Shown one piece after another: positions 1,091 through 40,961 of a DNA stretch of 64,000 nucleotides. The translations under genes were made by a program, and so were the position numbers. Source of the stretch: Candidatus Poribacteria bacterium. Lineage in GTDB: Bacteria > Poribacteria > WGA-4E > PCPOR2b. How positions within the stretch are numbered: the stretch's first letter is position 1; every line of letters begins with the position of its first letter. Location of the stretch: assembly GCA_965116925.1 (NCBI GenBank), contig OZ220744.1:2752001-2816000 (forward strand). Direction: 5' to 3'. A model generated the notes under the pieces. That model had not been told where the DNA came from, made no database searches, and saw only the letters and a program-made list of their open reading frames with translations.

Positions 1091-1915
1091 TTATCCTACC
1101 TCTTCACCATCAAGCCTACCAACCTGCAGATCGATCTCTTCACGGGTCTCCATCTTATCGATTTTGCCGTCCGCCATGTAGAAAATTCGATCCGAGACAT
1201 CAAGCATCTTTGTGTCGTGGGTGGCTGTGATAATCGTGACCCCATTCTCCTCATTTAGACTTTTCAGGAGGTCAATAATTTCAAGCCCGGTCCGTGTGTC
1301 TAGGTTTCCTGTTGGCTCATCCGCGAGGACAATCGCGGGATCGTTTGCGAGGGAGCGCGCAACGGCGACACGTTGTTGCTGACCACCGGAGAGTTCAAGC
1401 GGCTTATGCTGGACCCGTTCTCCTAACCCCACAGTGGTTAGCAGTTCAACCGCTTTTGTGCGGCTATCATCAGCAGTCATCCCAGCGAAAATCATGGGGA
1501 GGGAGACATTTTCGAGGGCGGTCATCACAGGGATGAGGTTGAACGACTGGAAAATGTAACCGATTTTACGGCAGCGCAGCCATGCCAATTCGTAGGCATC
1601 TAGTTGTGCGATATCCACTTCATCTATGTAGACCCTGCCCTCTGTCGGCTTGTCCAAGCCACCGATCATGTTGAAAAGCGTTGACTTACCGGAGCCTGAT
1701 GGTCCCATAATCGAGATGTACTCTCCACGGCGGATTTCAAAGTTGGTGCCTCGCAACGCCTCAACGACAGTGGTGCCCATCTCGTATTTCTTAATTAGAT
1801 TCCTGACCCGTACCGTGTTTTCCTTGGGTAGATCCCTTGCAAATCGGGCGGGCGTTTCTGTCGGCACGGCGGTCTGCCCTGCTGTTTCCGGAGATAGTCC
1901 TTCTAATTCTGCCAT
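1091..1915 (-). CDS. ABC transporter ATP-binding protein, LolD/MacB type
   Basis: Walker A GPSGSGKS, signature LSGGQQQRV, Walker B VLADEPTGNLD, H-loop ATHD. ATG at 1915 directly follows the upstream stop. Confidence 0.95.
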   Translation of the reverse strand: MAELEGLSPETAGQTAVPTETPARFARDLPKENTVRVRNLIKKYEMGTTVVEALRGTNFEIRRGEYISIMGPSGSGKSTLFNMIGGLDKPTEGRVYIDEVDIAQLDAYELAWLRCRKIGYIFQSFNLIPVMTALENVSLPMIFAGMTADDSRTKAVELLTTVGLGERVQHKPLELSGGQQQRVAVARSLANDPAIVLADEPTGNLDTRTGLEIIDLLKSLNEENGVTIITATHDTKMLDVSDRIFYMADGKIDKMETREEIDLQVGRLDGEEVG

Positions 1916-1916
1916 T

Positions 1917-2336
1917 TTACCTGTTTCCTTTCTTCGCTTTTTGGGGAACCGCAAATCCTACCATTCCCCGCTTGCCTAACTGCCGCATAAACGTGAACAG
2001 CGATGTCTCCGCCTCTTTTCTCGTCATGCGATATTTGTCACAAAGTTGTTTGACGATATAACCGATGGAATTATGTCCATCGCATAGTTGCCACACAAAG
2101 CCTCCGACATCGTCCAAGACAACCACACGGTTGGGAGGCAGCATAAAGAGTTTCGCTACCAACTTTAACCACAGCGTCTCCTTCTGAGGAATAACCAATG
2201 CAACTTCCCCTTTGTCATCGACCTCCCATTCGATTAACTGGTTGCGTAGCGGCAATGATTTTAAGATGTCCCCTCGATCCAGTTGGGATTCTGGACGTTT
2301 CTTGAGTCTGAGTTTGTAAAGGATTGCATTAATCAT
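1917..2336 (-). CDS. PqqD-family (RRE-like) protein
   Basis: LDDVGGFVWQLCDG...IVKQLCDKY...FMRQLGKRGMV is the typical PqqD pattern. Confidence 0.8.
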   Translation of the reverse strand: MINAILYKLRLKKRPESQLDRGDILKSLPLRNQLIEWEVDDKGEVALVIPQKETLWLKLVAKLFMLPPNRVVVLDDVGGFVWQLCDGHNSIGYIVKQLCDKYRMTRKEAETSLFTFMRQLGKRGMVGFAVPQKAKKGNR

Positions 2337-2385
2337 CGGTCTATTTGGTTCATTGGTACATTAGTTCATTGGTACATTATCCGTG

Positions 2386-2640
2386 CTATAGCGCAATTTC
2401 TGCCGTCGCGTACGCGAGAGCAAAGAGGAGGAATAGTATAGCGTAACCAATTTTTGAATTGCAATCAGGAAACTTCCTTTTGAGATCCGTTGCACAATAC
2501 ACGGCAACCGCTGCGGAACCTGTTAGGCTCACGCCGAGAAAAATCGGATCTGGAATGTCGAGTTCTCCGATGAAGTACCCCATCAAACCACAGAGAATAC
2601 ACCACAAGAACCAGACGGGACCAGAATCATACCACTTCAT
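2386..2640 (-). CDS. Small membrane protein (~84 aa, ~3 TM)
   Basis: ATG at 2640 after a purine-rich RBS; three hydrophobic segments. Confidence 0.6.
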   Translation of the reverse strand: MKWYDSGPVWFLWCILCGLMGYFIGELDIPDPIFLGVSLTGSAAVAVYCATDLKRKFPDCNSKIGYAILFLLFALAYATAEIAL

Positions 2641-2711
2641 CTCTCTTTCCCCCTTTGCCGTAATTGTGGTGCGTGGGTTCATGTTACGTTTCACGTTTCA
2701 CGCGTCACGTT

Positions 2712-3641
2712 TTAATGACGCCGGATGCTCGCCGCAATCTCTTCGGCTGTTCTCGCTGCATCCTGTTTGGCGATCGCTTGGACGACGTAGATCCGATTGG
2801 AGTGATGACAGTACCAGAGGTTCACGGCGAAAGTTTTGCGACGCATAATTTTGTCGATCACCAGCGCGGGACCAAAAGGCACGCGGTCTATGAGACGAGT
2901 TTCCTCTCCGATTAACGTTAGCCGTTCTTCTGCATCGCCGTTGCTGGATTCAATTGAGAAGCCATATCCACGGATGGCTTTGGCGTATCTCCCTCGAAAC
3001 CACTCCTCAAGATCTTGTTCCTTGAGCGTAACATCTGCGACTCCATACCGTTCGATGCTAACTTTTCGACTTCCATCTACGAACGAAAAGAGCAGGTAGC
3101 CCGACAACAGTTTATGCTTGTCGAGGCGATACCGCCGCGGAACTTCTGCATTGAGTTGGTAGGCACTCCAGAGCGTCGCCTGTCCTACCGGGTGATCTTG
3201 AACCGACCTAAATATTCGGCTAGTTGTCTCCTTAATATTTTCCTTGAGATGTCCCATAACCTGCACGATTGTAATTCGCTTGCAGATATGGCAGTGGAAG
3301 ATAACGCCGCTCGCCCGAAAATCGCCCTTCCAGTTGAAGAAAACAACCTCTCTGTCCTCGAAAAACGCCTCATCCTTGATTAGATTGACGTTACGCTGGA
3401 TGTGCAGGTTTGTATCTTTGCGTTTATAATTTTTGCGGACGAGCTTGAAATAGTCGTCGAGGACCTTTTGGAGGTCTGGTTTCTTCTGCTTTGATTCAGA
3501 CCATTTTAACTCAAGGCGCGGCATATCCGCGTCCTCTAGGCGCAGGTATCCACTTTTATCGTCACCAGATAATCCACTCAATTCCCAATCTGCGGGTAGT
3601 TCAAGGGTAATGCCACCCCACCCTAAAGTTGTCCATTCCAT
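2712..3641 (-). CDS. Hypothetical soluble protein of the transporter operon, with two internally similar halves
   Basis: 309-aa ORF; similar segments W.G...ELP..W.L...SG...SGYL and W.AY..EVP..Y.L....L.SGYL. Confidence 0.7.
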   Translation of the reverse strand: MEWTTLGWGGITLELPADWELSGLSGDDKSGYLRLEDADMPRLELKWSESKQKKPDLQKVLDDYFKLVRKNYKRKDTNLHIQRNVNLIKDEAFFEDREVVFFNWKGDFRASGVIFHCHICKRITIVQVMGHLKENIKETTSRIFRSVQDHPVGQATLWSAYQLNAEVPRRYRLDKHKLLSGYLLFSFVDGSRKVSIERYGVADVTLKEQDLEEWFRGRYAKAIRGYGFSIESSNGDAEERLTLIGEETRLIDRVPFGPALVIDKIMRRKTFAVNLWYCHHSNRIYVVQAIAKQDAARTAEEIAASIRRH

Positions 3642-3681
3642 AGTTGGTTCATCGGTACATTAGTTCATTGATTATGAAGTT

Positions 3682-3814
3682 GGCTCATGTTAAGAAAGCG
3701 TGCAACAGCAACCGAGTTTTCGTAGGGGTTGGGTCACCCAACCCTTACGGCGGGCGGGGAAACCCCGCCCCTACGATTTCGCTTCATATTTTGCACTTTC
3801 TTTTTACATGAGCC
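3682..3814. mobile_element. MITE-like element with a GTAG-type REP core
   Basis: Terminal inverted repeats GGCTCATGT...ACATGAGCC; 8-bp direct repeat ATGAAGTT on both flanks (3674-3681 and 3815-3822). Confidence 0.75.
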
Positions 3815-3878
3815 ATGAAGTTAACGGTTGAGGGCATCTAGGGCTTCCACACATGTCACTGATGGTCCCTGACGAATC

Positions 3879-4610
3879 TTAAAGCATTGGACTGTCAGGT
3901 CTGGGATTAGTCTCAGTCCTCTTATTCTCGGAAATCTTGGGGGTAGTGGACGAAGGAATTTCAAGTCCGGTCAAATTCTTAAGAATGGAACGAGCAGCCA
4001 TATGTACCAATTCATCAACAGCCCGTTTGTAAGTCCACTGATCCCCTGTTTGTACAGAAATCTCACCTGTTCCTTCCCAGACGACATCACCCATTGTACA
4101 TGACCAGACTTGTCCAAATATATTCATTTTGATTTCTTTTACTACTAATGGGTCTTTGCTCAAGATCCTTGGTGCAAGTCCCTCTGTTTGTGATTGCTCT
4201 AAGAGTTCGACGTACAATAGATATTCGACACCTACCACTGTCCCAATTTTTATCAGACTGCCTTTGTTCAAGATAGCTGAACGGTTATAGTTGTTTATCA
4301 GTCGTGAATAGTCTTCTATCAATCCCGCATTGCTGATTAAGGCTATTGTTTCAAGGTCCCCTATAAACTTACCTTCAGGAAATTTATTGCTAAGATCTTT
4401 ATTCAACTTATTTCCAAACGGTCTTCGTAATCCTTCCTGACTGGCGCTGGCAACAACAGGAAGTAAGCCCAATCCTCCTGCAGCGAGTGCCCCCTGTTTA
4501 GATTCTGTGGCAAAATAATCGAATTTGACATTCTGTGTAATAGGCGCTGCACAACCTGAAAAAATCACCAACATAAGGGGGAACAGTTTTTGGTGTATTG
4601 ATCGTTTCAT
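3879..4610 (-). CDS. Putative lipoprotein, possibly LpoB/CsgG-like
   Basis: Signal peptide with lipobox FSGC; C-terminal TMGDVVWEG strand; more AT-rich than neighbours. Confidence 0.65.
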   Translation of the reverse strand: MKRSIHQKLFPLMLVIFSGCAAPITQNVKFDYFATESKQGALAAGGLGLLPVVASASQEGLRRPFGNKLNKDLSNKFPEGKFIGDLETIALISNAGLIEDYSRLINNYNRSAILNKGSLIKIGTVVGVEYLLYVELLEQSQTEGLAPRILSKDPLVVKEIKMNIFGQVWSCTMGDVVWEGTGEISVQTGDQWTYKRAVDELVHMAARSILKNLTGLEIPSSTTPKISENKRTETNPRPDSPML

Positions 4611-4716
4611 CGGTTTTTCCTCTTTGAATGTCGAGATATGAATCTCGACCTACACGATCTGGTTACAGCACATTGCCTTGAATCCCGATTTATCGGGGCG
4701 GAGTGTGCCCACTACT

Positions 4717-6714
4717 TTAGAAAGGCTTGACAATCACCGCTTTAGAGACTAGCGCAATTGCAACCGTTCCCATTCCAATCAGTCCGACACCACAGACAAA
4801 GCCTGCTGCTAAAACGGGATTAAACATGAACCATCGTTTCAGTCCGAATATCTTAATCATGTAAAATCGACCGATAATTGCTCCCATTACCTTTGGAAGC
4901 ATCATGCCTGGATCTGCTCCGATGCCGCCGACGATCCCGTAGAACCACATACTCGGCATCTTTGCCACCCAGAGTATGCCGTAGATTGCCAGCGAGGAGG
5001 CGAAGCCTGCCGCAACATAGTTGCCACGAATGGCTTGCAACATCTGGCTGTTTCCGTCACGAAGCGAGGTTTTCCAGAGGCATTCGTTGGTCGCATAGAG
5101 GGGCCACCACGTCTGTGCGAATGGGTATTGCGCCGACGGAATTGGCGCAACTTTCCAGACAAAATGCCAGACCACAATGCCGGAGACGATCAGGATCGGC
5201 ATAAGCAGCAATCGTGCAGCGATACTACTGGTGAAGGTGGTGCCTGTCAATTCGAGGACACGCCAACTTTGGGTGCCACGTCCGTAGTCTTCGTCCGGCA
5301 GCGGGACGAACCAGATATCGATCTCCTCATAACGACTCAGGATAAATGTAGTTTCGTGGAGATAAGGGATCTCGAAAAGGTCACGGCCGAGGATCCCGTA
5401 CGTTCGCGCAGTGATGTATGAATTGATCGGGGTGTACAAAAAGGCGAATCCGATAAGGAAAACCAGTGGGAAGTTCGGCGCCATATAGGTGTGGACAATA
5501 TAGATAAAAGTGGTCATCCCAAAGAGCCATAGGATTGCCATCAACCAGAGCGGAAAATCGCCGCGTCCCGGTGGTGGTTCTCTTAACGATCTGCCTGCCC
5601 CTGTCTGTTCCTGTCGGGCTTGCTTAAACTTTATCACCATCGGAATCGAGGCTGCCATGCCAACGAGGGCGAAGCTGAACGATTTTCCCATCCCAAAGCT
5701 AATCCAAAAATCGAGACCGTTATATAAGCCTACACCGCGGACATCCAAGCCGGGACGCCACTGATGTAAAATCTCTGCGGGATAGAGAAGTCGTGGGTTC
5801 AGAATAAACTGGGTAAAGAATGCCCCTGCCAGCTCCGTCATGATAATGGGAAATGGCAGCACAAAACCGGTGAGTACCGCTCCGAAGTCGGTCGATAATG
5901 CGAATACACCTGTTGGCGCGATTTCTTCAATTACATTCGTGAAATCGATAAATGGAATTTTCAGGAGCTGTATCGGCGTTGTCATCATCACGCCTGTAAG
6001 TGAGGGGATACCGATATAGATAAATCCCCAGATCAAACCCGCCATAGATCCGACCGAAAAAACCCGCCACCGCCACGTTTCGACACGTCCGGTGGTTTCT
6101 GCTAAGGCGGTCGCGCCCTGTGCTTCGATGGGTGCCATTGGGTAGGGTAGCCGCTCCATATCCGCTGTCAGTCGAAACAGAAAGTAGCCTGCACTGATAT
6201 AGCGGATCTCCCCCAGCAGCTTGAATATCAGGAAGAATGCGATGGGCCAGAACCAGTCCATGTGCAAGAGCGAACGCTCTGCAATCGCTATCGCATCTTT
6301 CGGCGGCACAATCCAGAAAGGGATTTTATCCGCAATTTCATACGACGCAGCTTGTGGCGTATTGATAAAGTATGCGTACCAGATAAAGCCGCGATACTGA
6401 CCCCCGGACCCGACCGCTGCACCGGTGAGTCCAAGTAACATATAAAGCTCTTGTCGCCGAGCGGTTGTGAAAGATCGACGGGCTAGCTCTGTGAACAGGA
6501 TAACTGCGACCCACGGTGCTGCCCCTGCCCCGGATTGACCAGAGACGAGGGTCAGGTAGATTGACCCCGGCATCATCAGCAAGCCGACAAAAAGTGCGCC
6601 CAAAAAGACCTTCAGCGTTAGACCCGATTCAAAAGTGCGGATACCACCATCGATGTCGTAGCGCTGTGCCCAAACTTGCCACTCTTCTGCTTGTGTAATT
6701 CGTTCTCTTGCCAT
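4717..6714 (-). CDS. OPT-like polytopic peptide transporter, paralog 2
   Basis: 665 aa with many TM segments; motifs YLTLVSG, RQELY, ERLPYP, NPVLAAGF. Confidence 0.75.
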   Translation of the reverse strand: MARERITQAEEWQVWAQRYDIDGGIRTFESGLTLKVFLGALFVGLLMMPGSIYLTLVSGQSGAGAAPWVAVILFTELARRSFTTARRQELYMLLGLTGAAVGSGGQYRGFIWYAYFINTPQAASYEIADKIPFWIVPPKDAIAIAERSLLHMDWFWPIAFFLIFKLLGEIRYISAGYFLFRLTADMERLPYPMAPIEAQGATALAETTGRVETWRWRVFSVGSMAGLIWGFIYIGIPSLTGVMMTTPIQLLKIPFIDFTNVIEEIAPTGVFALSTDFGAVLTGFVLPFPIIMTELAGAFFTQFILNPRLLYPAEILHQWRPGLDVRGVGLYNGLDFWISFGMGKSFSFALVGMAASIPMVIKFKQARQEQTGAGRSLREPPPGRGDFPLWLMAILWLFGMTTFIYIVHTYMAPNFPLVFLIGFAFLYTPINSYITARTYGILGRDLFEIPYLHETTFILSRYEEIDIWFVPLPDEDYGRGTQSWRVLELTGTTFTSSIAARLLLMPILIVSGIVVWHFVWKVAPIPSAQYPFAQTWWPLYATNECLWKTSLRDGNSQMLQAIRGNYVAAGFASSLAIYGILWVAKMPSMWFYGIVGGIGADPGMMLPKVMGAIIGRFYMIKIFGLKRWFMFNPVLAAGFVCGVGLIGMGTVAIALVSKAVIVKPF

Positions 6715-6978
6715 AACAACCTAAGTCCATTAGTTCAAGGGTTCATGGCTAATTAAGTTACATTAAGGGACTCGATCCGAAACGATTCGGTCCTTCAGTG
6801 CCTTTAATGAGAAGAAGATTCTCCAAACTATCATCGCAATAGGAAGTCTCAGTTATGCTCAATTTCAGTTAGGTGTTGAGATATGAATCTCGACCTACTT
6901 ACCCAATCGGGAATCTATGTTTGTTTGGGGAATAACAATCCTCGTTTTCTGTTTCTTCTGTATGCTGCTCTATCCACG

Positions 6979-8073
6979 TTAGTCCAATGCTTGTAGGAAC
7001 GCTTCAAAACTGGAGGCTTGGATTGCTCTGAGATGCAGTTGTGTCAGACGCTCGGTATCTAGTATCAATTCAAGTTTCTGCTGAACGTGTTGTAGGTTAT
7101 TCTGCGGGAATCTCGCATTGAGTACTGAGAGAATATTTTTGATAGTAGTTTCGCGCGCGCCTTGTTCAATGCCTTGTTCAATACCTTGTGCCTTGCCTTG
7201 TTCAATGCCTTGTGCCTTGCCACGTTCAAGCAGCACTTCTGCCATTGACTGTGCCATTGAGGATACCTCCATTTCTTCTGTATGCCGATCTACCAAGGTT
7301 AGTAACTCGTTGTGTTCTTCAGCAGGACGGCGATGCAGAATCAATAACAACAGATACATAATTGCTCTATACCGCTGCTCCGATTCTGTCACATCCAGCG
7401 AGTTCAACTGTGATAGTGCTTGAACCAACGCTTCGCTTAGTGCCTCTCGACTTGCACCCTCTTTTTGAAGAACCGTTAGCAGCCAGCCCAACGGGTGCCC
7501 TGTCTTTGTTAAATCCGTCTCATCTGTTTCCTTCACGCTTAAAAACAAAGTGTCAAATTTGGGAACAAACCGAGAGAGTAGGTCCGGAATGTCCATTATG
7601 TCAGTGAGTGCCAAGGAAACGCTCCAACGCCGTTCCCCCGTATATAACACCATCGGGAGGATCGGACGCAAACGCCGCTCACTTCCCGGAACATCATCTG
7701 ACTCCCATTCCCTACGTTGTGCGTCCCACAGTTGCGTCATGTAAAACAGCACTCGAAATCCCATCAGCGGATCTACTGTAGATTGGTGTTCAAGCAAGAT
7801 ATAGATGAGCAGTTCATCGGTTTCCGAACCCCGCCGAAATGGCACGCTGAACACGAGGTCCGATTCCTGTTCTCGGAGTGTGTCAGAAATGAAGCTTCTG
7901 TTGAGTGGTGTAAGTTGGTCAAAATCTAAAAACGCTACCAGCTCGTTTGCAACGATTTCTACCAAGCCACGGACATATTGCTTGTCTTGGAACAACCACC
8001 GCGCGCTTCGGTCAGGAAAGTGTTCAATCGGAAAATCGACAGAAGCGCGTTCTTCTGTTTCCTCAGTTTGCAT
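6979..8073 (-). CDS. Rpn/YhgA-family PD-(D/E)XK nuclease (putative transposase)
   Basis: ESDLVF, YILLEHQS, RPILPMVLYTG and C-terminal GIEQG repeats. Confidence 0.9.
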   Translation of the reverse strand: MQTEETEERASVDFPIEHFPDRSARWLFQDKQYVRGLVEIVANELVAFLDFDQLTPLNRSFISDTLREQESDLVFSVPFRRGSETDELLIYILLEHQSTVDPLMGFRVLFYMTQLWDAQRREWESDDVPGSERRLRPILPMVLYTGERRWSVSLALTDIMDIPDLLSRFVPKFDTLFLSVKETDETDLTKTGHPLGWLLTVLQKEGASREALSEALVQALSQLNSLDVTESEQRYRAIMYLLLLILHRRPAEEHNELLTLVDRHTEEMEVSSMAQSMAEVLLERGKAQGIEQGKAQGIEQGIEQGARETTIKNILSVLNARFPQNNLQHVQQKLELILDTERLTQLHLRAIQASSFEAFLQALD

Positions 8074-8100
8074 AGTTTGATGAACTATTGAACCAATGAG

Positions 8101-10098
8101 CTAAAACGGCTTGACAATAACCGCTTTGGAGACTAGTGCGATTGCAACCGTTCCCATGCCAACAAGCCCGACACCACAGATGAAGCCTGCCGCCAAGACG
8201 GGATTATACATGAACCATCGTTTCAGACCAAACTGTTTGATCATGTAAAACCGACCGATGAGGGCACCCACCACTTTTGGAACCATCATCCCCGGGTCTT
8301 GACCGATCCCCCCAACAATGCCGTAGAACCACATACTTGGCGCCTTTGCCATCCAGAGCAGCCCGTAAATTGCCACTGAGGAGGTAAAGCCGGCTGACAC
8401 GTAATCGCCGCGAATGGCTTGTAACATCTGGCTATTTCCATCTCGAAGTGAGGTTTTCCAGAGACATTCATCGGTTGCGTAGAGAGGCCACCATGTCTGT
8501 GCAAAGGGATACTGTGAGGACGGGATAGGTGCGATCTGCCAGATGAAATGCCAGACCACGATTGTCGCAACAATCAAGAGCGGCACCATCAAGGCACGCG
8601 CTAGGACGTCGCTGGTGAAAGTTGTGCCGGTCAATTCAAGCACACGCCAATGCTGCGTACCCGCTCCGTAATCTTCATCTGGCAGGTGGACAAACCAGAT
8701 ATCAATCTCCTCGTAGCGGCTTAAAATAAACGTTGCCTGATGGATGTAGGGCAGCACGAAGAGCGGTCGCCCTAACACTCCAAATGTTCGTGCGTTGATA
8801 TAGGAGTGCAAAGGGGTATACAGAAAGGCAAAGCCGAGGAGGAAAGAAACGGGAAAGTTCGGGACCATCCGATGCACAATCCATACATACACCACCATGC
8901 TGAGACCCCATAAGCCGCCCATGAACCAAATTGGGAAATCACCACGTCCCGGCGGCGTTTGCAGCGAGCCTCGCGCCCCCGCCTCTTGTTGTTTTTTCCT
9001 TCTGAGGCTCAACATGATTGGGATGGACGCTGCCAAACCGACGGCAGCAAAGCTGAAGGATTTGCCCATGTTGAAACTCAACCAGAAATCGAGGTCATTA
9101 AACAGCTTAACGCCACGCATATCCAAGCCCGGACGCCACTGATGTAGGATCTCCAATGGGTAGAGGATTCGCGGGTTCAGGATAAACTGGGTGAACATCG
9201 CTGCAACGAATTCGCTAATAATAAGTGGAAACGGTAGCACAAACCCCTGTAGCATCATGCCAAAATCTGTCCATAGGGCAAACATCCCCGATGGTGCAAA
9301 GCTTTCGATGCTTGGGGTGAAGTCAATAAATGGGATTTTCAGAATCTGTATCGGTGTTGACATCATCACGCCTGTGAGCGCAGGAATACCGATATAGAAA
9401 AACCCCCAGAACAGTCCCGCCATGGAACCGATTGAAAAGACACGCCAACGCCATGTTTCGCCCTGACCCGTGGTTTCGGCTAATGCGGTCGCGCCTTGCG
9501 CTTGAATCGGTGCCAACGGGTAGGGGAGTCGCTCTAAATCTGCTGTCAGACGGAACAGAAAATAGCTCGCGCTAATATAGCGAACCTCTGCTAGCAACTT
9601 CATGACCAGAAAGATCGCAAGGGGCCAGAACCAATCCATATGCAACAGCGAACGCTCTGCAATTGCCATCGCGTCCTTTGCGGGTGCAACCCAATAAGGG
9701 ACTTTGTCCGCGATTTCATACGACTGTGCCTGCGGCGTGTTGATAAAGTAGGCGTACCAGACAAACGGATAGGCACGATATTGGATTCCAGAACCGACCG
9801 CCATGCCGGTTAGTCCCAGCAAAATGTAAAGTTCTTGTCTCCTTGCAGTTGTGAAAGACCGGCGCGCCAATTCTGTAAATAGAATGACCGCCACCCAAGG
9901 CGCAGCACCTGCGCCCGACTGACCTGCAACTAAGGTCAGATAGATTGACCCCGGCATCATCAATAGACCGATGAAGAGTGCACCTAGAAAGACTTTCAAG
10001 GTTAAGCCGGACTCAAAGGTTCTTAAACCGCCTTCAACATCATAACGTTGTGCCCAAGCTTGCCACTCTTCTGCTTGCGACACCCTTTCTCTTGCCAA
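8101..10098 (-). CDS. OPT-like polytopic peptide transporter, paralog 1
   Basis: 665 aa; TTG start after AGGAG; colinear and highly similar to 4717-6714. Confidence 0.75.
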   Translation of the reverse strand: MARERVSQAEEWQAWAQRYDVEGGLRTFESGLTLKVFLGALFIGLLMMPGSIYLTLVAGQSGAGAAPWVAVILFTELARRSFTTARRQELYILLGLTGMAVGSGIQYRAYPFVWYAYFINTPQAQSYEIADKVPYWVAPAKDAMAIAERSLLHMDWFWPLAIFLVMKLLAEVRYISASYFLFRLTADLERLPYPLAPIQAQGATALAETTGQGETWRWRVFSIGSMAGLFWGFFYIGIPALTGVMMSTPIQILKIPFIDFTPSIESFAPSGMFALWTDFGMMLQGFVLPFPLIISEFVAAMFTQFILNPRILYPLEILHQWRPGLDMRGVKLFNDLDFWLSFNMGKSFSFAAVGLAASIPIMLSLRRKKQQEAGARGSLQTPPGRGDFPIWFMGGLWGLSMVVYVWIVHRMVPNFPVSFLLGFAFLYTPLHSYINARTFGVLGRPLFVLPYIHQATFILSRYEEIDIWFVHLPDEDYGAGTQHWRVLELTGTTFTSDVLARALMVPLLIVATIVVWHFIWQIAPIPSSQYPFAQTWWPLYATDECLWKTSLRDGNSQMLQAIRGDYVSAGFTSSVAIYGLLWMAKAPSMWFYGIVGGIGQDPGMMVPKVVGALIGRFYMIKQFGLKRWFMYNPVLAAGFICGVGLVGMGTVAIALVSKAVIVKPF

Positions 10099-10341
10099 AT
10101 TTATGCTCCTTTCAGGACGCGAAGCGTAAAACGTAAAACGTGAAACGTGAAGGGAATGGGTAAATACAGGTTTTTAATGAAACACAGTTGTAAGATGTGT
10201 TCATGAGCTCAACCCTTCATTGGTATATTGCTTGGTTACCGATTTCTTAAAATCTTACATAACCACGAATCCACGATAACGAAATAGGGAGATTTGAAGC
10301 AATCTTTTCTCACGTTTCACACATCACGTTTCACGATCCTG

Positions 10342-10509
10342 CTATTTTTTTTCTCGAAAAAGCTCTTCCCAAACGTGGGCGATAATAATTCCAACAATGA
10401 GAATTAGGGCAGCGAGTAGTTGTGCCTGCCATCTGCCTTGCATAGCAAAAATCGAAAATACCCAAAAAATTGCACCGATAAAAATTAAGACATACGCTAG
10501 TTTTTCCAT
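10342..10509 (-). CDS. Small 2-TM membrane protein (55 aa), absent from the ORF track
   Basis: MEKLAYVLIFIGAIFWVFSIFAMQGRWQAQLLAALILIVGIIIAHVWEELFREKK*; AAGGAG RBS right after the giant gene's stop. Confidence 0.65.
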   Translation of the reverse strand: MEKLAYVLIFIGAIFWVFSIFAMQGRWQAQLLAALILIVGIIIAHVWEELFREKK

Positions 10510-10527
10510 TGATTCTGTTTTCTCCTT

Positions 10528-13500
10528 TTAATCCGCTGGTGCGGGTTGAGCAGCCAGACCGCCAACGCCCGGAGCGTCTTCCGTCTCGCTCTCTTGCCGT
10601 CCACGCTCATGGAACTCACCGCGGATATCAGCACTGAACGTCCGCCAAATTAGTAGCTGTTTTCGGACAAGGTTCAAGAAACGACGGTTGACGCGCTTCC
10701 ATGAAGCAATCTCCCCGCTCTCACGGTGGACATCGAGGTGAATCTTATACAACTCTTCCTCTTCTCCGCCGACCGGTGAGGTGACAAGCCGAATGGATTG
10801 GCTGACTCCGAGATCGTAGGGGGCGAGCCACACCATCATGCTGATGTTGTAGGCTTCTTCCTCTTCCTCTTTCCCTTCCACTACCACAGGCGTTCGACCG
10901 AAGGCGACCTGATCCGTGTAGAAATCGCTTGCGGATTCGTCGGCGTGTGCTTCAAAGTAATCGCGCATAAAGATATTTAAGCCGAGCGATTCTTCTGCCA
11001 ACACGGTGAAGGGGAGATCGAAGTGCCACTCGTCGCCTTCAGGCTCCGGCAGCTGCCATTTCCGTTCGATGTCAGGCACCGCCATGCGACTGGCTTTAAT
11101 TGCAGGATACAGTGTACTTCCAATCACGACAATCATTACAATAATGGTTGCTACCACTGTTGACATTGACGAGTAGTTGAGGGTCAATCCAGCAAGCAAG
11201 CCAAAGTTGACAAGGACGGTTGCGACTGCCTGGCCGAGCAGGTAACCGAGCACAGCACCGACAATCGCATACACACACGCTTCCGCGAGGAACAGGAAGG
11301 CGATATGCACGGGAGCGAGTCCGACAGAACTGTAGATGCCGATTTCACGGACCCGTTCGTAGACCGCACCGAGCATCGTGTTCAGAACGATCAGCGACGC
11401 AATTAAAATTGGTATGAATAGGTTACCCATACCGGAGAAAGAGGTCATTCCGATGGAACTGTAGAGATAGGTGTCCCGATCTTTTCCAACAAAGAAGTCG
11501 AGTGCGATTCGGTTCATCAGCGGTGCCATGATCAGGTCCAGTTTATCTGCCGCACTGAAGATTGTTGGATCGCCGGGCTGTGCTTCCATGTTGACAGCGA
11601 CGGAGCGTAACGTCCCGCCCTGATTCATGACTACATCATACGGCAGGATAGCCACAGCATCGGGAGGTAGATGAATATATTTCTCCAACTCTCCTTCCAT
11701 GGCTTGGTTCTGTCCTTGGGCGCCACCGCCTCGCGCTTCCTGCTGCTGCATCAGTTGGTAGTCAACAGGTGTCAGTTCTTCGCCATCATTATCCTGTAAG
11801 TCTTTGAAGCCGATACCGAGAACACCCGTAACGGTGAAGTCTGCGCCGTATACGGATACAGTCGCTTTGCCCATATCGGCTTCGGTGATGCCGAGCAGAT
11901 CCGCCATACCTTTGGGGAGGACACAAGCATAGGGCCATTGTGTGGGCCACTCTGCTTCATCGTCGGGGTGATACCATCGACCATACTGGAGGTAACGGTC
12001 AATTCCTGTTACACCGGGTTCATCTTGACTCATCCCGACCAACATGGTAGCAGAGTAGGTCTTTGGCTGACCGGTGGTAGTATTGACAGGCGGTACAGGA
12101 TCTTGCAGGTTGGGGGTGCGCTCTAGCTGCACAAACGACTGATCGCCGGTGCCCGCGGACTGATACCATGCGCGTGGCGCGACGATGTTATGCACTCGGA
12201 GGACGGATTCTTCGCCCAGCTCAATCAACGATCCCTCCTGACGTAATTGGGCTATGATTGCTTCAACCTCTACGTCAGCCTGCTCTGCCGATTTACCTTG
12301 CTGCCCCAGTCGTTTCTTCAGCAGTAACCGTAGATCTTTTTCAGGGATTTGTGTTTTCCGCAGATCATTTGTGAGTGAGTTGACAACAGGTTCTTCGAGC
12401 GGATTCCAATACTGATCTCGGATAAGCATCCCGGTGTAGCGCGGCGTTACGGAAGGTAGGTTGGTGCTGTTGGGATGCATAAAGGTACGCACCGATGTAA
12501 AGGAGATGACCGTAAAGGTGAGAATAACCAGTGTGCTACAGGTGAGGATGGTGCGGCCCTTCCGCTTACGCATATTGGAAATACCTAGACTGAAAGCGGC
12601 AGCGGAGGCAGACAAGCGTCCCACGTCTGCCTTGTACACTTTTGATCCCTCCTGCTTAATTTTTTCCACCTGTTCTTCAAATTTCCGGACGATGATGCTG
12701 ATCACAATTGCCGTCAACGCAAGGACGACGAACGCAATCAGGATGATAACCGGCGTCGTGGTAATCTGGAATGCGGGGTGCACCTGCGCCAAGAAGAAAA
12801 AGACAACGAGGAAGATCGCAGCTGTCCCCATAATCTGTTTTTGGACGGTTGGGAAAGCGAATATCAACCGTTCCATGAAGTAGGCGAACGGGATCAGGAG
12901 GGCGAGATAGAACATCACACCATTGACTACGTCATTGCCGGTTTTCTTCACATCGGGGTAGGCGCGGGATTCGTATCCCCACGCGGCGCGGGCAAGTTTG
13001 AGTGCCTGCTGATAGTCTTTTTGGGTGAGGGCAGCCTCCGCCTGATTTAGATGTTCGTTGGCGAATTGGTGGAGCTGATCAAGCCGATCGCTGCTGATGC
13101 CGAACCGTTTATACAGACTCGCCCGGTTCTCATCGAGCCACCACATATCGCGGACGACAACGTATGGGGTTACGCGAATGCTACCGTTCTCGCGGACAAC
13201 AAACCCTTCTCCGGTATAGAGTGTCGGGTTCTTCGTTCCGCTTTTACTCGCCTTGATCAATAGTAACCGTTTGCCGATTTGTCCATACGCCATGCCGACC
13301 TTGATACGACTGTTAGGCTCCGAATAAACGAGCGCGATAGGCTCAGTTGCCGAGATACCTTCCTGCTGCCACGGCTTCGATACGCCATACTTTTCTGGTG
13401 GGCTATCGCTTGCGGCATCAAAAACTTCCAGTTCACGAAGCGTTCGTAGGTATCGCTGATCCACAAGATCGTAGATAGTGGTAGACACACAGGGGAAAAC

Positions 13501-16500
13501 CACGATACGGCATCCACGACGGTGGGTGTTAATCGGTATCAGGTTCGGCAAGAGTTTCGCGCCGAAGTTACCGAGATCCGGTGCGTAGACAATATCACCG
13601 GAATCCGGGTGGAGGATATAAGCTTCCACCTCTTGCGTTCCTTTGAGGCGGATGGTGGCACGCCCCTCCATCGCAAGTCCTGCAACCTCAAAGTTTCCTT
13701 TATTGTCGCCCATTGCAATGAGATCGCCTCGCACCCCCATCATGGTTTTGTGCTGATTCCGCAAAGCGAGAATAGGATACTCCACCGGTTTGTTTGGTAG
13801 CGCGCTCTCACGGGCATCATACTCGACGACATCACCAAACAGGTTGCAGTAGAAGTTCCCCACCCGTGCTGCGGTGGGCATCTTCGGATCGCGCATCGCT
13901 TGGATAAGAATAGCGGCAAGGGTTTTCGCCTGTTTATGCAAGGCACCATCGTGGCTCAAATCCATTCGGTCAATTGTGTCGAGCGGGGTATCGGTCAACA
14001 CGCGTGCATCGTCGATGGTGGCAAAAGCAATTCCGGTAAAGCCGGTCAGGGTTGCCACTTCGCTATCAAAGGCTATCTTACCAGGTATGTAGGTCTTCCA
14101 GATCTTACCGCCACTAGCAGAGATTGCGTTGACAAAGTTGGTCTCACCACCAAACCCGGCGATATCAATGAGTGCCTTAATATCATCGACTTCCTCTTGT
14201 GTAAATTCGGACGGGTCCTCGTGGCGCAGGGCAAGCATCGCATCCATTCGATTGAGCAGGCGCACCTTATTCTTCCGGTTCTTCCGCGCCTCCCGGATAT
14301 CGTTTCGGATGAATCGTTCGACTTCCTTACGGATATAGTCCATATCCTTGAGCATATCCTCGGAAGGTTCGCCCTGATTTTTCATCTGCTCAAACTGCAT
14401 CTTCATCAATCGAGACACTCCGGATAGCCCGACCAACGTTGCGTAATGCTCAGTAACTAAGCTTTCAAGGCTCTTGCCCTCGATGGCTTTTTTCGGATCG
14501 ATGCCAGCTGCAACTGTCCATTGAGTATTCATCACCGCTTGGCGGATCTGATCGTCGGTGAAGGTCCATAGTTTCTGGATACGTTCACCGAAATCGGCAC
14601 CCTCTGCGTATTCGGCAAGTTTATTTCCGATGGAAGCGAACTCGCGGCGGAGGACAAATTCGGGCTGCTGGTCATAGAACCACCCTTTGTTGAATACGCC
14701 AAACTGGTCGTTCTGGCTGGAGAGGTCAATGGCGATAAAGAGAGAGGTGTAGTAACGATTAAAGATGTCTTGCAGTGCAATCGCTTGTTCGATGGAACGT
14801 ATCTTCCGTGTGTATTCTGACTCGCTGATACGTGCAATTTTCTCGACCCGTTTTTGTAGATTGCGAAATCGAGCGTTCCGCATCGTGAGCAGGTTATCAC
14901 GGAGGAGAATCTTGGTCTCCTCGTCCGGATCGCGGTCAAGACGGTCAAGGATGTTCAGCAGGTTCTGGAGTTCGACAATATCGTTTTTGGCTCGCCGCTT
15001 CACCATCTCTAGTAGATGCTGTTCTTCAAGCTGACCGAAGATCTGCTCTCGGACAGCCATCGCTCGGTCTGCTGCATCTTCAGGGAGATAGTGGCGGAGG
15101 ACGAGTGCCTCTTCGGCGAGGTAGGGACGGTTCAGCGACGCATGGCGTTCAAGGAGGGATTCAATTCGATAGCGTTCAAGGCGAGCGTTCCGCATCGCGG
15201 TTTCGAGGATACTCTGTTTATCTCTGGTCAGGTCATCAACCAAAATTTGGTCTAATTCTCGTGAGGTTGCTGTTCCCGTTGTCGGGTCCATCATCTCCAA
15301 CTTCTGGTGGAGTTGAGTCTGAACAATCTCAAACTGCTTGAGGGTTGCCTCATTGAGGAAGAGTTCTAGCTCATCCGCAAAGCCTGCCGGGAGGTGATCC
15401 GGTTTAGAACTTAACTGGGTGATAGCGTTTTTGATACTATCCTCTGCATCGCTGCTTGCGGGAATATTGGCGAGCGTTCGTTCAAGGAGTTGCCGTTCTT
15501 CTTCGATGTAGGCTTCCAGAGATTTTTCAGCGCGGTTGACAACCCTACGAGCTGACTTGATTCGTTCCAAACCCTTAAAGTCAAGATGGCGGTCTAACAA
15601 CTTCTCTTGGGCATACTGGAGGGTGAATTTCCGTGGATCTTCAAATTCCCAGTCCTGCAAATTGTCCGAGAGTCGCTGAACATCTACCTCCAGATACGAC
15701 GGTAGGTCACTCGGTACTGGTAGATAATAACGTCCCCCCTCCCGTTCCTTCGGTACGAGATAGCTGCTGTCTGGCGTTTGTACATATTTCCCTTCAATCC
15801 GTTCTGCCCTTAAATCCGCTTCCAATTTATCTATTGCCCAAACGTCCAACCGAGCCATCGGTAGGGCAATCTGTTCAATCAATTCACGTTGGGTGTCACG
15901 GCATTCAGCTAATGCTTGTGTGCGCAGTTTTAGGGTACGGTTAAGCATTGAACGCAGGAATTGAGTGGTCTGCAGCGCGTCTTTCTTGAACTTCGCGAGG
16001 TTGACCTCTAGTCGTGATTTTTCCTCTTCGGTGAATCCTTGCTTCTCCCGTTTCTTGGTTGTTTCGAGTTTCTTCTTCTCTTTCTCTTTTGCGTCACGCT
16101 GGGCGTTACGCAACGAGTCAATGTTGCCTTTGGTTGTCTGTAGATCGGAGAGGGTTGTTGCTAGGGAGGCGACATCTGCTTTGAGTTCGTGGACATCGTG
16201 GAAGAAGTTAGGGGGTAAATCTACCAGCACATTTCGGTCGATCGATAGCAGTAGCTTACGTCCCAGTTCCTCAAACTCAAAGAGGTCGGTACTTAAACCG
16301 CGACGCAGCCCGCGCATTGTCGGTGTGCCGGGAGAATCCGCTTCTCGTCCGACGATATCTTGACCAATCCCCTCCATAAATGCGCGCATACCCCCCAGTC
16401 CTTGGAAGTGGGCATCTGTTGCGACAAACAGAAGGGAACGCCCCGGTCGAAATTCCTCTTGGCTGAAGATACGAGCAAGCTCCAACAGAGTGGCAATGCC

Positions 16501-17949
16501 GCCGGTGGGATCGGCACCGGGTGCCATTGCGGGAACGACAGACATTGAGTCGTAATAGCCGGTGATAACAACCAATTCGTCCTTTAGGGTTGGGTCGCCA
16601 CCTTCAAGGAAACCACGAATGTTCTGCCCAATACGCTGTTCCCAAGTAATGGTACTAGTGAGACGTGCGTAAATTTTCTGAGGAGACGATTCCGATTGTG
16701 CTTCCCCTTCGCCAAGCATAGCCAAGAGTTCGTCGGCGTCCTCTTTAGCAATCCAGAAGCGGGGGATGTTGGCAGGGACCGTCAGGAATTTGTTCTCAGC
16801 CTCACCGCGGATAGTTGTCTCCGGCTCGATGAAGAGGACAGCTTTCGCGCCAAGCATGGCGGCGTTAATCCATTTGGTACTAGAGTTGAAGTCAACCAGT
16901 ACAACGCTGCCTTGGGGGATAAAGATGCTGGATTCATAGGCGGCAACAAACTCGCCTTCTTCGTCAATTTGCCCATTGTTGTTGTTATCAATACCATCAG
17001 TTGCATCGCCGGGGATTTCGTCTACGAAGGCGTCACCATCGTTGTCGATGCCGTCGGTATCCCATTGCAAGATCTCAGTTAGTGGGGGAATCTCACCGTA
17101 TTCGTCGATCTGTCCGTCTTCATTGTTGTCAATACCATCTTGCGTCTTTTGGAGATGGCCGTTAAGCACATCGTCAGTGATGCTGCCGACACCGATACGG
17201 AAACGGTGGGCGAGGTCTTCCAAAGTATCGCCAGGTTCAACTTTGTGCCAGAAACCGCCGATATCTTTGCCGTTGAACGAGGAGAGTTCCCCACTTCCCC
17301 CATAAAAGAGGGGCGCGGTCAGTCCACCGGTGGGAATAAAGAGCGAGTTGCCTTCGACCAGCACTAACTCGCCCGGTTCGTCGATTTCACCATCATCATC
17401 GTTATCGCTGCCATCGGTTGCTTGGTCACGGAGGTATTGGTTATGCGGGTCAGCCAAGATAGCTTGTGGGTCAACTTGATAGGATTTAGCAATTCCGTCA
17501 AAGGTTTCGCCTTGAACGACTACATGCGAGACACCGTTGGGGAGGAAGGAGGTGCGAACAAGGTTGGGCCAGATTGACCAGATTCGGTAAGTCTTCAGAA
17601 GCGTTTGATCTTCGGAAAGAATTTCTACCTTTCCATCACCGTGATCTATTGGAACAGAAACGGGAAACTCACGGCTCTCAACGTTTTGTAAGCCGATCTC
17701 GACAAATTGGTCAAAGATGTACTTGCTGCCTGAAGCGGCTTCATCGTAACCGGTGACGCGGGTGGGCAGATTGGAGAGTCGAGCGATGTCTTTTCGCATT
17801 CGGCCGATATCGACTTTGTCACTGATTTTGACTGCAACCTCCGAAAGCCCGACAGACAGCTGTTCGTCAACAGCGAAACCGCCGTGTGGAGATAGTAGCG
17901 CGAGAATGCAGAGCCATAGACTGATGTAATAATATCTCTTGATGATCAT
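10528..17949 (-). CDS. Giant fusion: M28-like peptidase/PA domain, 2 LysM, acidic repeats, long helical insert and FtsX-type ABC permease (~2473 aa)
   Basis: Signal peptide; RVTG, ITGYYDS, PGAD and FVATDAHFQGL (M28-like); LysM-like HVVVQGETFDGIA and HKVEPGDTLEDLA; DGxDNxxDGxIDE repeats; FtsX motifs SNMRKRKGRT and VYERVREIGIYSSVG. ATG at 17949 has a GGAGG RBS. Confidence 0.85.
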   Translation of the reverse strand: MIIKRYYYISLWLCILALLSPHGGFAVDEQLSVGLSEVAVKISDKVDIGRMRKDIARLSNLPTRVTGYDEAASGSKYIFDQFVEIGLQNVESREFPVSVPIDHGDGKVEILSEDQTLLKTYRIWSIWPNLVRTSFLPNGVSHVVVQGETFDGIAKSYQVDPQAILADPHNQYLRDQATDGSDNDDDGEIDEPGELVLVEGNSLFIPTGGLTAPLFYGGSGELSSFNGKDIGGFWHKVEPGDTLEDLAHRFRIGVGSITDDVLNGHLQKTQDGIDNNEDGQIDEYGEIPPLTEILQWDTDGIDNDGDAFVDEIPGDATDGIDNNNNGQIDEEGEFVAAYESSIFIPQGSVVLVDFNSSTKWINAAMLGAKAVLFIEPETTIRGEAENKFLTVPANIPRFWIAKEDADELLAMLGEGEAQSESSPQKIYARLTSTITWEQRIGQNIRGFLEGGDPTLKDELVVITGYYDSMSVVPAMAPGADPTGGIATLLELARIFSQEEFRPGRSLLFVATDAHFQGLGGMRAFMEGIGQDIVGREADSPGTPTMRGLRRGLSTDLFEFEELGRKLLLSIDRNVLVDLPPNFFHDVHELKADVASLATTLSDLQTTKGNIDSLRNAQRDAKEKEKKKLETTKKREKQGFTEEEKSRLEVNLAKFKKDALQTTQFLRSMLNRTLKLRTQALAECRDTQRELIEQIALPMARLDVWAIDKLEADLRAERIEGKYVQTPDSSYLVPKEREGGRYYLPVPSDLPSYLEVDVQRLSDNLQDWEFEDPRKFTLQYAQEKLLDRHLDFKGLERIKSARRVVNRAEKSLEAYIEEERQLLERTLANIPASSDAEDSIKNAITQLSSKPDHLPAGFADELELFLNEATLKQFEIVQTQLHQKLEMMDPTTGTATSRELDQILVDDLTRDKQSILETAMRNARLERYRIESLLERHASLNRPYLAEEALVLRHYLPEDAADRAMAVREQIFGQLEEQHLLEMVKRRAKNDIVELQNLLNILDRLDRDPDEETKILLRDNLLTMRNARFRNLQKRVEKIARISESEYTRKIRSIEQAIALQDIFNRYYTSLFIAIDLSSQNDQFGVFNKGWFYDQQPEFVLRREFASIGNKLAEYAEGADFGERIQKLWTFTDDQIRQAVMNTQWTVAAGIDPKKAIEGKSLESLVTEHYATLVGLSGVSRLMKMQFEQMKNQGEPSEDMLKDMDYIRKEVERFIRNDIREARKNRKNKVRLLNRMDAMLALRHEDPSEFTQEEVDDIKALIDIAGFGGETNFVNAISASGGKIWKTYIPGKIAFDSEVATLTGFTGIAFATIDDARVLTDTPLDTIDRMDLSHDGALHKQAKTLAAILIQAMRDPKMPTAARVGNFYCNLFGDVVEYDARESALPNKPVEYPILALRNQHKTMMGVRGDLIAMGDNKGNFEVAGLAMEGRATIRLKGTQEVEAYILHPDSGDIVYAPDLGNFGAKLLPNLIPINTHRRGCRIVVFPCVSTTIYDLVDQRYLRTLRELEVFDAASDSPPEKYGVSKPWQQEGISATEPIALVYSEPNSRIKVGMAYGQIGKRLLLIKASKSGTKNPTLYTGEGFVVRENGSIRVTPYVVVRDMWWLDENRASLYKRFGISSDRLDQLHQFANEHLNQAEAALTQKDYQQALKLARAAWGYESRAYPDVKKTGNDVVNGVMFYLALLIPFAYFMERLIFAFPTVQKQIMGTAAIFLVVFFFLAQVHPAFQITTTPVIILIAFVVLALTAIVISIIVRKFEEQVEKIKQEGSKVYKADVGRLSASAAAFSLGISNMRKRKGRTILTCSTLVILTFTVISFTSVRTFMHPNSTNLPSVTPRYTGMLIRDQYWNPLEEPVVNSLTNDLRKTQIPEKDLRLLLKKRLGQQGKSAEQADVEVEAIIAQLRQEGSLIELGEESVLRVHNIVAPRAWYQSAGTGDQSFVQLERTPNLQDPVPPVNTTTGQPKTYSATMLVGMSQDEPGVTGIDRYLQYGRWYHPDDEAEWPTQWPYACVLPKGMADLLGITEADMGKATVSVYGADFTVTGVLGIGFKDLQDNDGEELTPVDYQLMQQQEARGGGAQGQNQAMEGELEKYIHLPPDAVAILPYDVVMNQGGTLRSVAVNMEAQPGDPTIFSAADKLDLIMAPLMNRIALDFFVGKDRDTYLYSSIGMTSFSGMGNLFIPILIASLIVLNTMLGAVYERVREIGIYSSVGLAPVHIAFLFLAEACVYAIVGAVLGYLLGQAVATVLVNFGLLAGLTLNYSSMSTVVATIIVMIVVIGSTLYPAIKASRMAVPDIERKWQLPEPEGDEWHFDLPFTVLAEESLGLNIFMRDYFEAHADESASDFYTDQVAFGRTPVVVEGKEEEEEAYNISMMVWLAPYDLGVSQSIRLVTSPVGGEEEELYKIHLDVHRESGEIASWKRVNRRFLNLVRKQLLIWRTFSADIRGEFHERGRQESETEDAPGVGGLAAQPAPAD

Positions 17950-18017
17950 GATAATTCCTCCGATTTTTTTAATAGGCTGACCGGCGCATAGTATGCTATT
18001 GTGTTTAGATCTGTCAG

Positions 18018-18046
18018 ATTCTATCATAGTCACAAAGTCTTGTCAA
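18018..18046 (-). promoter_or_regulatory. Sigma70 promoter of the transporter operon
   Basis: TTGACA-N17-TAGAAT on the minus strand; supports the 17949 start. Confidence 0.75.
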
Positions 18047-18298
18047 GATGCAAAACGGATCTAATTCACAAAAACATAAAACGTGATTGGTTCATTTATC
18101 ATGTTTTAGATTTCATTCATGGAATGCCGATAAAATCGGGGATGCAGGGCGTAACTTCTATCAATTTCGTTTTATACCTTGCATTGGGCGACGTAATATG
18201 TTAAAATGTGAATCACAATCGTTAGAAGGTGCAATAAACACGCTTTTCTGCGATCGTACACCGTTTTTTACCCTAACCCCATAAGGAGGTATGTGATT

Positions 18299-18637
18299 AT
18301 GTCTGTTTCAGTACGTATTAAGGAACGTCGTGATAAACTCGGAATGACACAAACACAACTCGCCAAATCGGCGAAGTTGACTCCCGCAGCGATTTCACAG
18401 TTTGAGTCCGGTGCCCGGAAACCGGCATTCGACACACTTTCGAGCCTTGCCGATGCGTTAAAAGTTACCACAGATTACCTGCTCGGCAAAAAGGCGCACG
18501 ACTACGACGACCTTCTGGCGGATCCGAAGGTTAGTGTTATGTTTAGAGGTATCATGGACCTTTCTGAGGAAGATAAGGAGACGCTGATCGAGTTCTACCA
18601 ATTTCTTAAAGATAAAAACGGCAAAAACACGCAGTAA
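18299..18637 (+). CDS. XRE-family HTH transcriptional regulator
   Basis: MTQTQLA...ISQFESGARKP...LADALKVTTDYLLG; AAGGAGG RBS. Confidence 0.92.
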   Translation: MSVSVRIKERRDKLGMTQTQLAKSAKLTPAAISQFESGARKPAFDTLSSLADALKVTTDYLLGKKAHDYDDLLADPKVSVMFRGIMDLSEEDKETLIEFYQFLKDKNGKNTQ

Positions 18638-18665
18638 CACAATTTGATGGATCTGCTGCTTTGAC

Positions 18666-33259: not shown

Positions 33260-33341
33260 CTTTTGTTACCTCCAATTTCTCTAATTAGGGGTTATGCACT
33301 TCAGTAGCAAGGGCAACCACAAGTTTCTTAGTCCCGATCTA

Positions 33342-40942: not shown

Positions 40943-40961
40943 CTTGTAGGAGGAAGCAGAT

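Follow-up and report, generated by a model that had tools for sequence, protein, structure and literature searches.

A conserved operon encoding a putative type VII ABC machine and OPT-fold proteins in Poribacteria and Planctomycetota

A conserved operon in the window

We analysed a 64,000-nt stretch of the genome of a Candidatus Poribacteria bacterium, a sponge symbiont (contig OZ220744.1, positions 2,752,001 to 2,816,000; hereafter the window). Its open reading frames (ORFs), listed with their translations, include a run of co-oriented operon genes on the minus strand at 1091-18046, which an earlier note made from the sequence alone had described as an uncharacterised envelope machine. The genes named there are present at the places given: a giant subunit of 2473 aa (10528-17949), two 665-aa paralogues with 78% identity that we call the core OPT (copy 1, with a TTG start, at 8101-10098; copy 2, a tandem duplicate, at 4717-6714), a 309-aa protein (P309; 2712-3641), a 139-aa protein with an N-terminal extension and the fold of PqqD and the RiPP recognition element (RRE) (1917-2336; PF05402, E 1e-12), and a 274-aa LolD/MacB-type ABC ATPase (1091-1915; PF00005). 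The last two genes abut as described, the ATPase starting 1 nt past the PqqD stop codon. Four ORFs of the run had gone unmentioned: a 55-aa protein with two predicted membrane helices (10342-10509), a 364-aa Rpn/YhgA-like gene (6979-8073; PF04754, E 5e-30), a 243-aa lipoprotein-like ORF with a lipobox-like FSGC (3879-4610) and a hydrophobic 102-aa ORF (2386-2694).

The same gene order recurs in 58 loci of the Poribacteria clade (L011-L068), with the giant and the core OPT in all 58, P309 and PqqD in 56 each and an ATPase match in 54; most of the gaps are contig ends. The operon is real and conserved, and its core in the window comprises the giant, the 55-aa protein, the OPT-fold protein, P309, the PqqD-like protein and the LolD-type ATPase. 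The other three ORFs are passengers because they are rare in these loci: Rpn matches occur in 3/58 and never in the window's slot (the own genome has 13 tblastn matches), the 243-aa ORF in 1/58 and the 102-aa ORF in 2/58. The 55-aa ORF is kept in 52/58 loci, and its differences by codon position (331/127/454) follow a coding pattern. It had no match in the loci examined beyond the clade, and is likely a small subunit specific to Poribacteria. Two copies of the core OPT are found in 18 of 19 genomes of the same genus and mostly one outside it. A quick tree places each copy in a clade of its own (SH-aLRT, the Shimodaira-Hasegawa-like approximate likelihood ratio test, 100), so that by sequence the second copy is a local duplication within the genus, and two OPT transporters, as the earlier note had it, are not supported as a design feature of the system. 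Short repeated words lie at the operon junctions (927-1090, 2337-2385, 3642-3878, 4611-4716, 6715-6978 and 10099-10341) and flank the passenger genes; one is a 16-mer at 952, 2355 and 3654, of which the genome has four copies, and another a 17-mer at 4633 and 6878, of which it has 49.

The promoter proposed for the run is a sigma-70-type site at 18018-18046 on the minus strand (TTGACA-17-TAGAAT with a TG extension, 11/12 consensus matches). It stands as the best of 14 sites, but their number is no higher than in shuffled sequence (17.7 +/- 4.3). RNA contigs from two studies (X1-X3, X8) end at 17996-17998, and the contig of run X12, for which the library type is not on record, extends past. As contigs, these show neither level nor a single transcript and may include DNA carried over into the libraries; the ends hint weakly at transcription starting just below the promoter-like site. 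In the strain of runs X1/X2 the 243-aa ORF is skipped and the 102-aa ORF replaced. Beside the promoter and divergent from the operon lie an XRE helix-turn-helix gene and an IrrE/M78-like gene (18293-19553, plus strand).

Predicted folds and motifs of the subunits

The giant, translated from the ATG at 17949 behind a GGAGG site, is laid out as a signal/anchor, a PA + M28 ectodomain, three extra membrane helices, a MacB/FtsX unit and a cytoplasmic tail of about 190 aa. FtsX, M28 and LysM of Pfam exceed their cut-offs, and PA and MacB_PCD fall under them; MacB_PCD is over the cut-off in the giants of loci L063, L078 and L081. Pfam and hydropathy together thus outline an FtsX/MacB membrane unit with a periplasmic domain after the first helix. 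The window ATPase retains Walker A, signature, Walker B and His switch. Its best NCBIfam model is LolD (232.6 bits, below the cut-off of 307.75), and all window proteins are under the cut-offs of the LolD, LolC, MacB and FtsE models. By its MacB/LolD-type ATPase and FtsX/MacB unit, the system is assigned to the type VII ABC superfamily.

The system is not complete as listed in the earlier note. A small FtsX protein (226 aa, 45% identical) is encoded at C1:1263521-1264201 of the own genome, 1.49 Mb from the window, and behind it a second LolD-type ATPase of 242 aa that is 63% identical to the window ATPase (both within G000 C1:1262780-1264201; L088:8781-10201, minus strand). The second ATPase has no exact match to ADEPTGNLD, a pattern present in the window ATPase. 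The small FtsX was found in 39/41 genomes searched, and the ATPase is adjacent to it in 12/12 loci examined, all of the own genus. The window operon therefore lacks the second FtsX, its ATPase and the genes for DUF6785 carriers described below, which lie elsewhere in the genome. In other phyla the second FtsX and DUF6785 are inside the operon, as in the Desantisbacteria locus L078, which has the full set rearranged (P309, PqqD, small FtsX, ATPase, DUF6785, giant, OPT).

An active M28 peptidase holds two metals by His, Asp, Glu-Glu, Asp and His. The corresponding motif columns of the window giant read GYYDS, APGADP, DAHFQ, DLSS and DTPLD; compared with aminopeptidase 2EK8, the first His is replaced by Tyr, Glu-Glu by His-Phe and the last His by Asp. 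Glu-Glu is retained in 0/13 rows of alignment A2 and 0/15 of alignment A4 of giant homologues. Because these metal and catalytic positions are replaced or degenerate, the domain is, as judged from the alignments, a pseudo-peptidase, and the peptide processing once ascribed to it finds no support. It may hold another metal site through conserved His/Asp residues, and the ectodomain would bind rather than cut.

In comparison with PDB entries, profiles of the giant rank PA-M28 aminopeptidases first (E 7e-20), followed by MacB-type proteins, nicalin (6e-10 to 7e-9), TfR1 (5e-7) and nicastrin (1e-3). A gap-free D-x4-P-x-L-x2-GA loop is common to the giant profile and nicalin and absent from the two best aminopeptidases. 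Two candidate assignments were not supported: membership of the nicastrin/nicalin family, as aminopeptidases rank above nicalin, and a special link to nicastrin, as PF05450 is over the cut-off in 0/5 genomes and does not favour the giants over other genes.

Compact homologues of the giant have about 1500 aa. The window giant carries insertions at residues 137-205, 231-345, 545-1067, 1118-1259 and 1867-1922, with LysM/acidic and long charged stretches among those of the ectodomain, and the L078 giant has a CBM32 at about the site of the window's long insertion. Residues 137-345 of the giant (window 17949-16900) are insertions specific to Poribacteria, with LysM and three matches to acidic D-G-x-D-N-x-x-D-G-x-x-D repeats that are possibly calcium-binding. 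The homologues at G152:C2:93202-98256 and G082:C6:26880-31913 occupy open frames of about 2780 aa, a large insertion following profile position 563; the ectodomain appears to tolerate varied inserts.

The folds of the core OPT and P309 were recognised only through structure prediction, because searches of PDB sequences gave nothing significant for either. The 665-aa proteins of the window also have no Pfam match. The core OPT model (predicted local distance difference test, pLDDT, 81.9) matches barley YS1 alone, with a Foldseek E of 3.5e-9 and a VIA Z of 21.7 over 554 residues at a root-mean-square deviation (rmsd) of 4.3, the next Z being 3.9; the predicted fold is of the YS1 type. PF03169, missing from the window proteins, was matched by 4/120 of the homologues listed and by most listed homologues of the divergent member in genome G051. 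In a genome scan, core-OPT relatives were confirmed in at least 526 of 602 pattern-matching stretches among the matches listed, and none of the viral contigs searched encodes one.

The P309 model (pLDDT 94.4) consists of two Mog1p/PsbP-like domains by Foldseek and VIA: residues 1-150 align with cyanobacterial PsbP (Z 13.7, 139 aligned, rmsd 3.3) and residues 154-309 with Mog1 (Z 11.6, 138 aligned, rmsd 4.2). The protein has neither a signal nor a membrane segment and is predicted to be a cytoplasmic adaptor. No Pfam family recurs among 118 members. A search at E up to 1e-10 gave 699 relatives as 50%-identity representatives. Archaeal members are a lead from Atlas taxa; neither the ten P309 relatives looked up nor the search with the G051 OPT yielded the name of an archaeon, and none of the operons seen was archaeal.

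DUF6785, PqqD and distribution across genomes

The own genome has 28 DUF6785 genes, next to a single giant, P309 and PqqD, and none were found in 14 control genomes; several phyla show 5 to 28 matches per genome. A colinear local hhalign joins DUF6785 to the core OPT (probability 70, E 4e-5, 403 columns), and a shared motif is present in 26/28 and 73/75; with moderate strength, DUF6785 is indicated to be a remote OPT homologue. The DUF6785 paralogues of one genome (median identity 38%) are more divergent than 62 distant core OPTs (median 51%). Among 93 neighbouring genes, those we take from their motifs to be PhyH-like (6), Zn-dehydrogenase-like (4) and esterase-like (2) hint weakly at a catabolic setting, with best p values of about 0.002-0.009, uncorrected over 11 clusters. 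Runs of similar secreted proteins lie directly upstream of DUF6785 at G000 C1:1966489-1971653, C1:6333031-6337585 and C1:2999259-3003368, and are possible cargo-binding partners. We found no paper on DUF6785 in the open literature searched.

The earlier note had placed PqqD outside biosynthesis of peptides that are ribosomally synthesised and then post-translationally modified (RiPPs), and the genomes agree. All four Planctomycetota genomes with PqqD and without the machine (L125-L128) have it directly behind an ordinary OPT gene; in one of them, a second PqqD match adjoins a radical-SAM-type gene. PqqD matches on plasmids are 15 haloarchaeal records, and in 3/3 inspected (L110, L111 and L112) the gene, which shares the N-terminal extension, directly follows an annotated OPT with no ABC partner in the same run. 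The core-OPT and DUF6785 hidden Markov models did not convincingly detect these haloarchaeal OPTs. In locus L099, P309 is fused to PqqD. Because it follows ordinary OPT genes where the machine is absent, this PqqD subfamily is, on gene order and sequence, an OPT companion and not a RiPP marker. In L125 and L126, an ORF that we presume to encode an M20-like peptidase comes after the OPT + PqqD pair. The literature searched held no description of such a two-gene unit.

Gene-neighbourhood analysis across phyla, proposed as a check of the earlier note, showed the gene set recurring together in Poribacteria-clade, Planctomycetota and Desantisbacteria loci. Among 151 Planctomycetota genomes (assembled genomes, taken without quality figures; 7 and 3 candidates scored per genome for the core OPT and giant tallies), 27 have the giant and the same 27 the core OPT. 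DUF6785 (26 genomes) and P309 (23) occur exclusively within these 27, as does the PqqD subfamily in 24 of its 28 genomes. The exceptions are G097, G139 and G163, without a PqqD match, and G121, G138 and G139, without a P309 match, G138 having a divergent P309 in place. In 17/26 genomes, by the positions listed, a DUF6785 gene sits no more than 12 kb from the giant or core OPT. Four of the 20 Planctomycetota core loci fetched (L096, L097, L098 and L101) have the full seven-gene order DUF6785 - P309 - PqqD - second FtsX - giant - OPT - ATPase, and most others have giant-OPT with DUF6785 close by; the P309-PqqD-FtsX-ATPase module also recurs separately. Operon linkage is stronger evidence than co-occurrence.

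Giants number 4, 3, 3, 2 and 1 in genomes G045, G196, G197, G198 and G044, each of which has one P309. In the phylum of G045, 30/30 genomes have 11-28 DUF6785 matches and at least three giant matches; with both genes in every genome, this phylum is uninformative on absence. Elsewhere in the window, a cluster of genes that we take from their translations to be PspA-like and flotillin-like lies at 39861-44865 (plus strand), and two tandem ORFs with identical N-terminal sequence at 32528-34121 (minus strand).

A candidate uptake machine and its alternatives

The sequences and models show which genes are present, that these co-occur and are linked in operons, what folds the models take, that the ATPase motifs are intact and that the peptidase site is degenerate. 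From these we infer, with a probability of about 0.5, that the operon is the core of a type VII ABC machine that drives nutrient uptake through OPT-fold carriers, one motor being shared by many DUF6785 proteins; physical coupling, direction and cargo are the conjectural parts. The FtsX unit of the giant, the second FtsX subunit and the two ATPases would form a LolCDE-like heterodimer, and the pseudo-peptidase ectodomain would bind cargo uncut. Transferrin receptor and nicastrin-type domains bind in this way without cutting. Since no transport path runs through type VII membrane domains themselves (PMC5985334), the ATP stroke would be passed to an OPT-fold pair, the core OPT and one variable DUF6785, which would carry cargo inward, with the PqqD-like and PsbP-like proteins as adaptors on the cytoplasmic side. 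In the account of PMC5985334, type VII ABC proteins move no substrate across their own membrane and use ATP hydrolysis for work outside. OPT members are described as importers of peptides, folate and peptidoglycan fragments (PMC3061005; PMC12687453; PMC12284242), and prokaryotic OPTs as uncharacterised as of 2011 and often near peptidases (PMC3061005). The clues to cargo are mixed: the peptidase-like domain, OPT and PqqD point to peptides, whereas glycans and small organics are suggested by LysM, CBM32 and the genes around DUF6785. The core likely handles peptide-like or glycopeptide-like cargo, and the DUF6785 paralogues likely take a variety of small organics. A single motor module with one to a few ectodomain subunits and numerous divergent carriers makes a shared-engine pattern, which is why ATP-driven uptake via the core OPT/DUF6785 pair is favoured over assembly, export and sensing.

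More tentatively, and as something we would sooner doubt than assert, the machine may be an ATP-driven importer of a new class. In it, a type VII mechanotransducer whose dead peptidase is receptor-like would be the common engine, docking on any of up to about 30 exchangeable OPT-fold carriers and turning a secondary-carrier fold to primary active uptake; PqqD would serve as the cytoplasmic subunit of the carrier. Such importers would occur in Poribacteria, Planctomycetota, Armatimonadota, Latescibacterota-like bacteria and further phyla with few cultured members. Its parts have known folds, and the combination fits no known system tested. The loci and the YS1-fold model support the earlier claim that the system is conserved, uncharacterised and of type VII ABC kind, and that an OPT-fold protein belongs to it; no description of the machine was found in a literature search that left most subscription journals and all supplements outside its range.

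Several points weigh against uptake. Contacts between the subunits are conjectured from gene linkage, folds and motifs. Type VII proteins are classed as mechanotransducers and importers as families I-III in PMC5985334, and known OPTs are described as proton-coupled, needing no ATPase. Ordinary OPT + PqqD pairs exist without ABC genes, and in G051, which has giant, OPT, PqqD and ATPase, neither DUF6785 nor P309 was matched. Related genomes are not independent cases of co-occurrence, and relatedness inflates the pattern. The homology of DUF6785 with OPT is only moderately indicated at probability 70: a global hhalign of the core OPT with the own genome's DUF6785 set gave no match, the local run having used another DUF6785 alignment. 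The neighbour enrichment around DUF6785, with p values left uncorrected, is weak.

The best surviving alternative, unlikely in our judgement, is an assembly or quality-control factor, in which the motor and a nicalin-like ectodomain insert, fold or reset OPT-fold proteins that afterwards act by themselves as proton-coupled carriers. Nicalin has a role in the biogenesis of multipass membrane proteins, and one core serving many clients fits assembly equally well. The nicalin match (E 6e-10), with its loop lacking in the two best aminopeptidases, agrees with such a role, but PA-M28 aminopeptidases outscore it and Pfam Nicastrin stays under the cut-off without preferring giants over other genes. 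P309 has a fold common to chaperone and immunity proteins such as SciW and TplEi; on the other side, ordinary OPTs exist without the machine, and the carbohydrate-binding inserts suggest an outside ligand.

Export or extraction into the envelope of a glycopeptide, lipid-linked precursor or surface protein, in the manner of MacB, LolCDE or YbbAP and with OPT-fold proteins delivering substrate from the cytoplasm, seems somewhat less probable again. It would be in line with the characterised type VII systems of PMC5985334, which all work extracytoplasmically, with peptide binding by the PqqD fold in the cytoplasm (PMC7470986) and with LysM and CBM32 as possible binders of wall glycans. However, the operons inspected show no recurrent gene for an adaptor, exit duct, LolA, amidase or precursor, and up to 28 scattered DUF6785 paralogues among catabolic-looking genes suit uptake better.

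We consider it improbable that the ABC part is a BceAB-like sensor or regulator that gates independent OPT-fold carriers without powering them. Its large ectodomain of ligand-binding type and the conserved cytoplasmic tail of the giant would suit sensing, a role in which type VII homologues also act (PMC5985334), but the loci inspected have no recurrent kinase or regulator next to the operon, the XRE/IrrE-like pair beside the promoter being an observation on the window. A RiPP pathway with PqqD binding a leader and M28 cleaving it is suggested by the PF05402 match and by the statement that a PqqD-like gene near transporters indicates a RiPP cluster (PMC7470986), but is largely refuted and has next to no probability left: in line with the earlier note, no CxxxCxxC radical-SAM motif was found in the window's non-overlapping ORFs of at least 100 aa, the peptidase site is degenerate, it is OPT genes that this PqqD subfamily goes with, conservation among small ORFs is limited to the hydrophobic two-helix protein, itself confined to Poribacteria, and no modifying enzyme and precursor recur beside the RRE in related loci, where other enzyme classes were not searched by family.

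If the uptake machine is true, it joins two transporter folds thought independent, adds import to the roles of type VII ABC proteins, provides DUF6785 with a function and helps explain the uptake of complex dissolved organic matter by Poribacteria and similar organisms. Whatever the mechanism, a PqqD subfamily that accompanies OPT genes is of concern to RiPP genome mining, which takes genes of this kind for biosynthetic markers, and OPT + PqqD pairs in Halobacterium salinarum NRC-1, a laboratory strain, make the companion role testable.

Compared with known systems, the machine is closest in its motor to LolCDE, and also to MacB, FtsEX, YtrEF and YbbAP-TesA: it shares the LolD-like ATPase with intact motifs and the FtsX/MacB unit with a MacB-type periplasmic domain, and its two different FtsX subunits suggest a heterodimer as in LolCDE. 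It differs from these systems in the fused PA-M28 pseudo-peptidase ectodomain with three extra helices and in its constant link to OPT-fold proteins, to PqqD and to a PsbP protein in tandem form; the operons showed neither LolA nor MacA/TolC nor EnvC. With nicalin, nicastrin and the transferrin receptor it shares the PA + M28 architecture and the loss of metal ligands, but active PA-M28 aminopeptidases outscore them, the domain here forms a fusion with an ABC permease, and the likeness is one of profile scores. The core OPT has the same predicted fold as OPT/YSL transporters (barley YS1, PDB 7WSR/7WST; PF03169), some homologues carry PF03169, and the PqqD companion is common to ordinary prokaryotic OPTs; unlike these, the window proteins show 14-15% identity and no Pfam match, are tied to an ABC motor and have multi-copy DUF6785 paralogues.

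In energy-coupling factor (ECF) transporters, of ABC type III, the motor is shared by exchangeable S components. Their architecture is given as T + S (PMC8386196). Neither an EcfT subunit nor an S-component fold was found here, the membrane subunits being FtsX-type and of predicted YS1 fold: unlike ECF, the motor is type VII, the partners are OPT-fold proteins of about 650 aa and not S components of 6-7 helices, and the ectodomain is huge. What the two have in common, here as a copy-number pattern alone, is one motor module with many scattered, divergent membrane partners.

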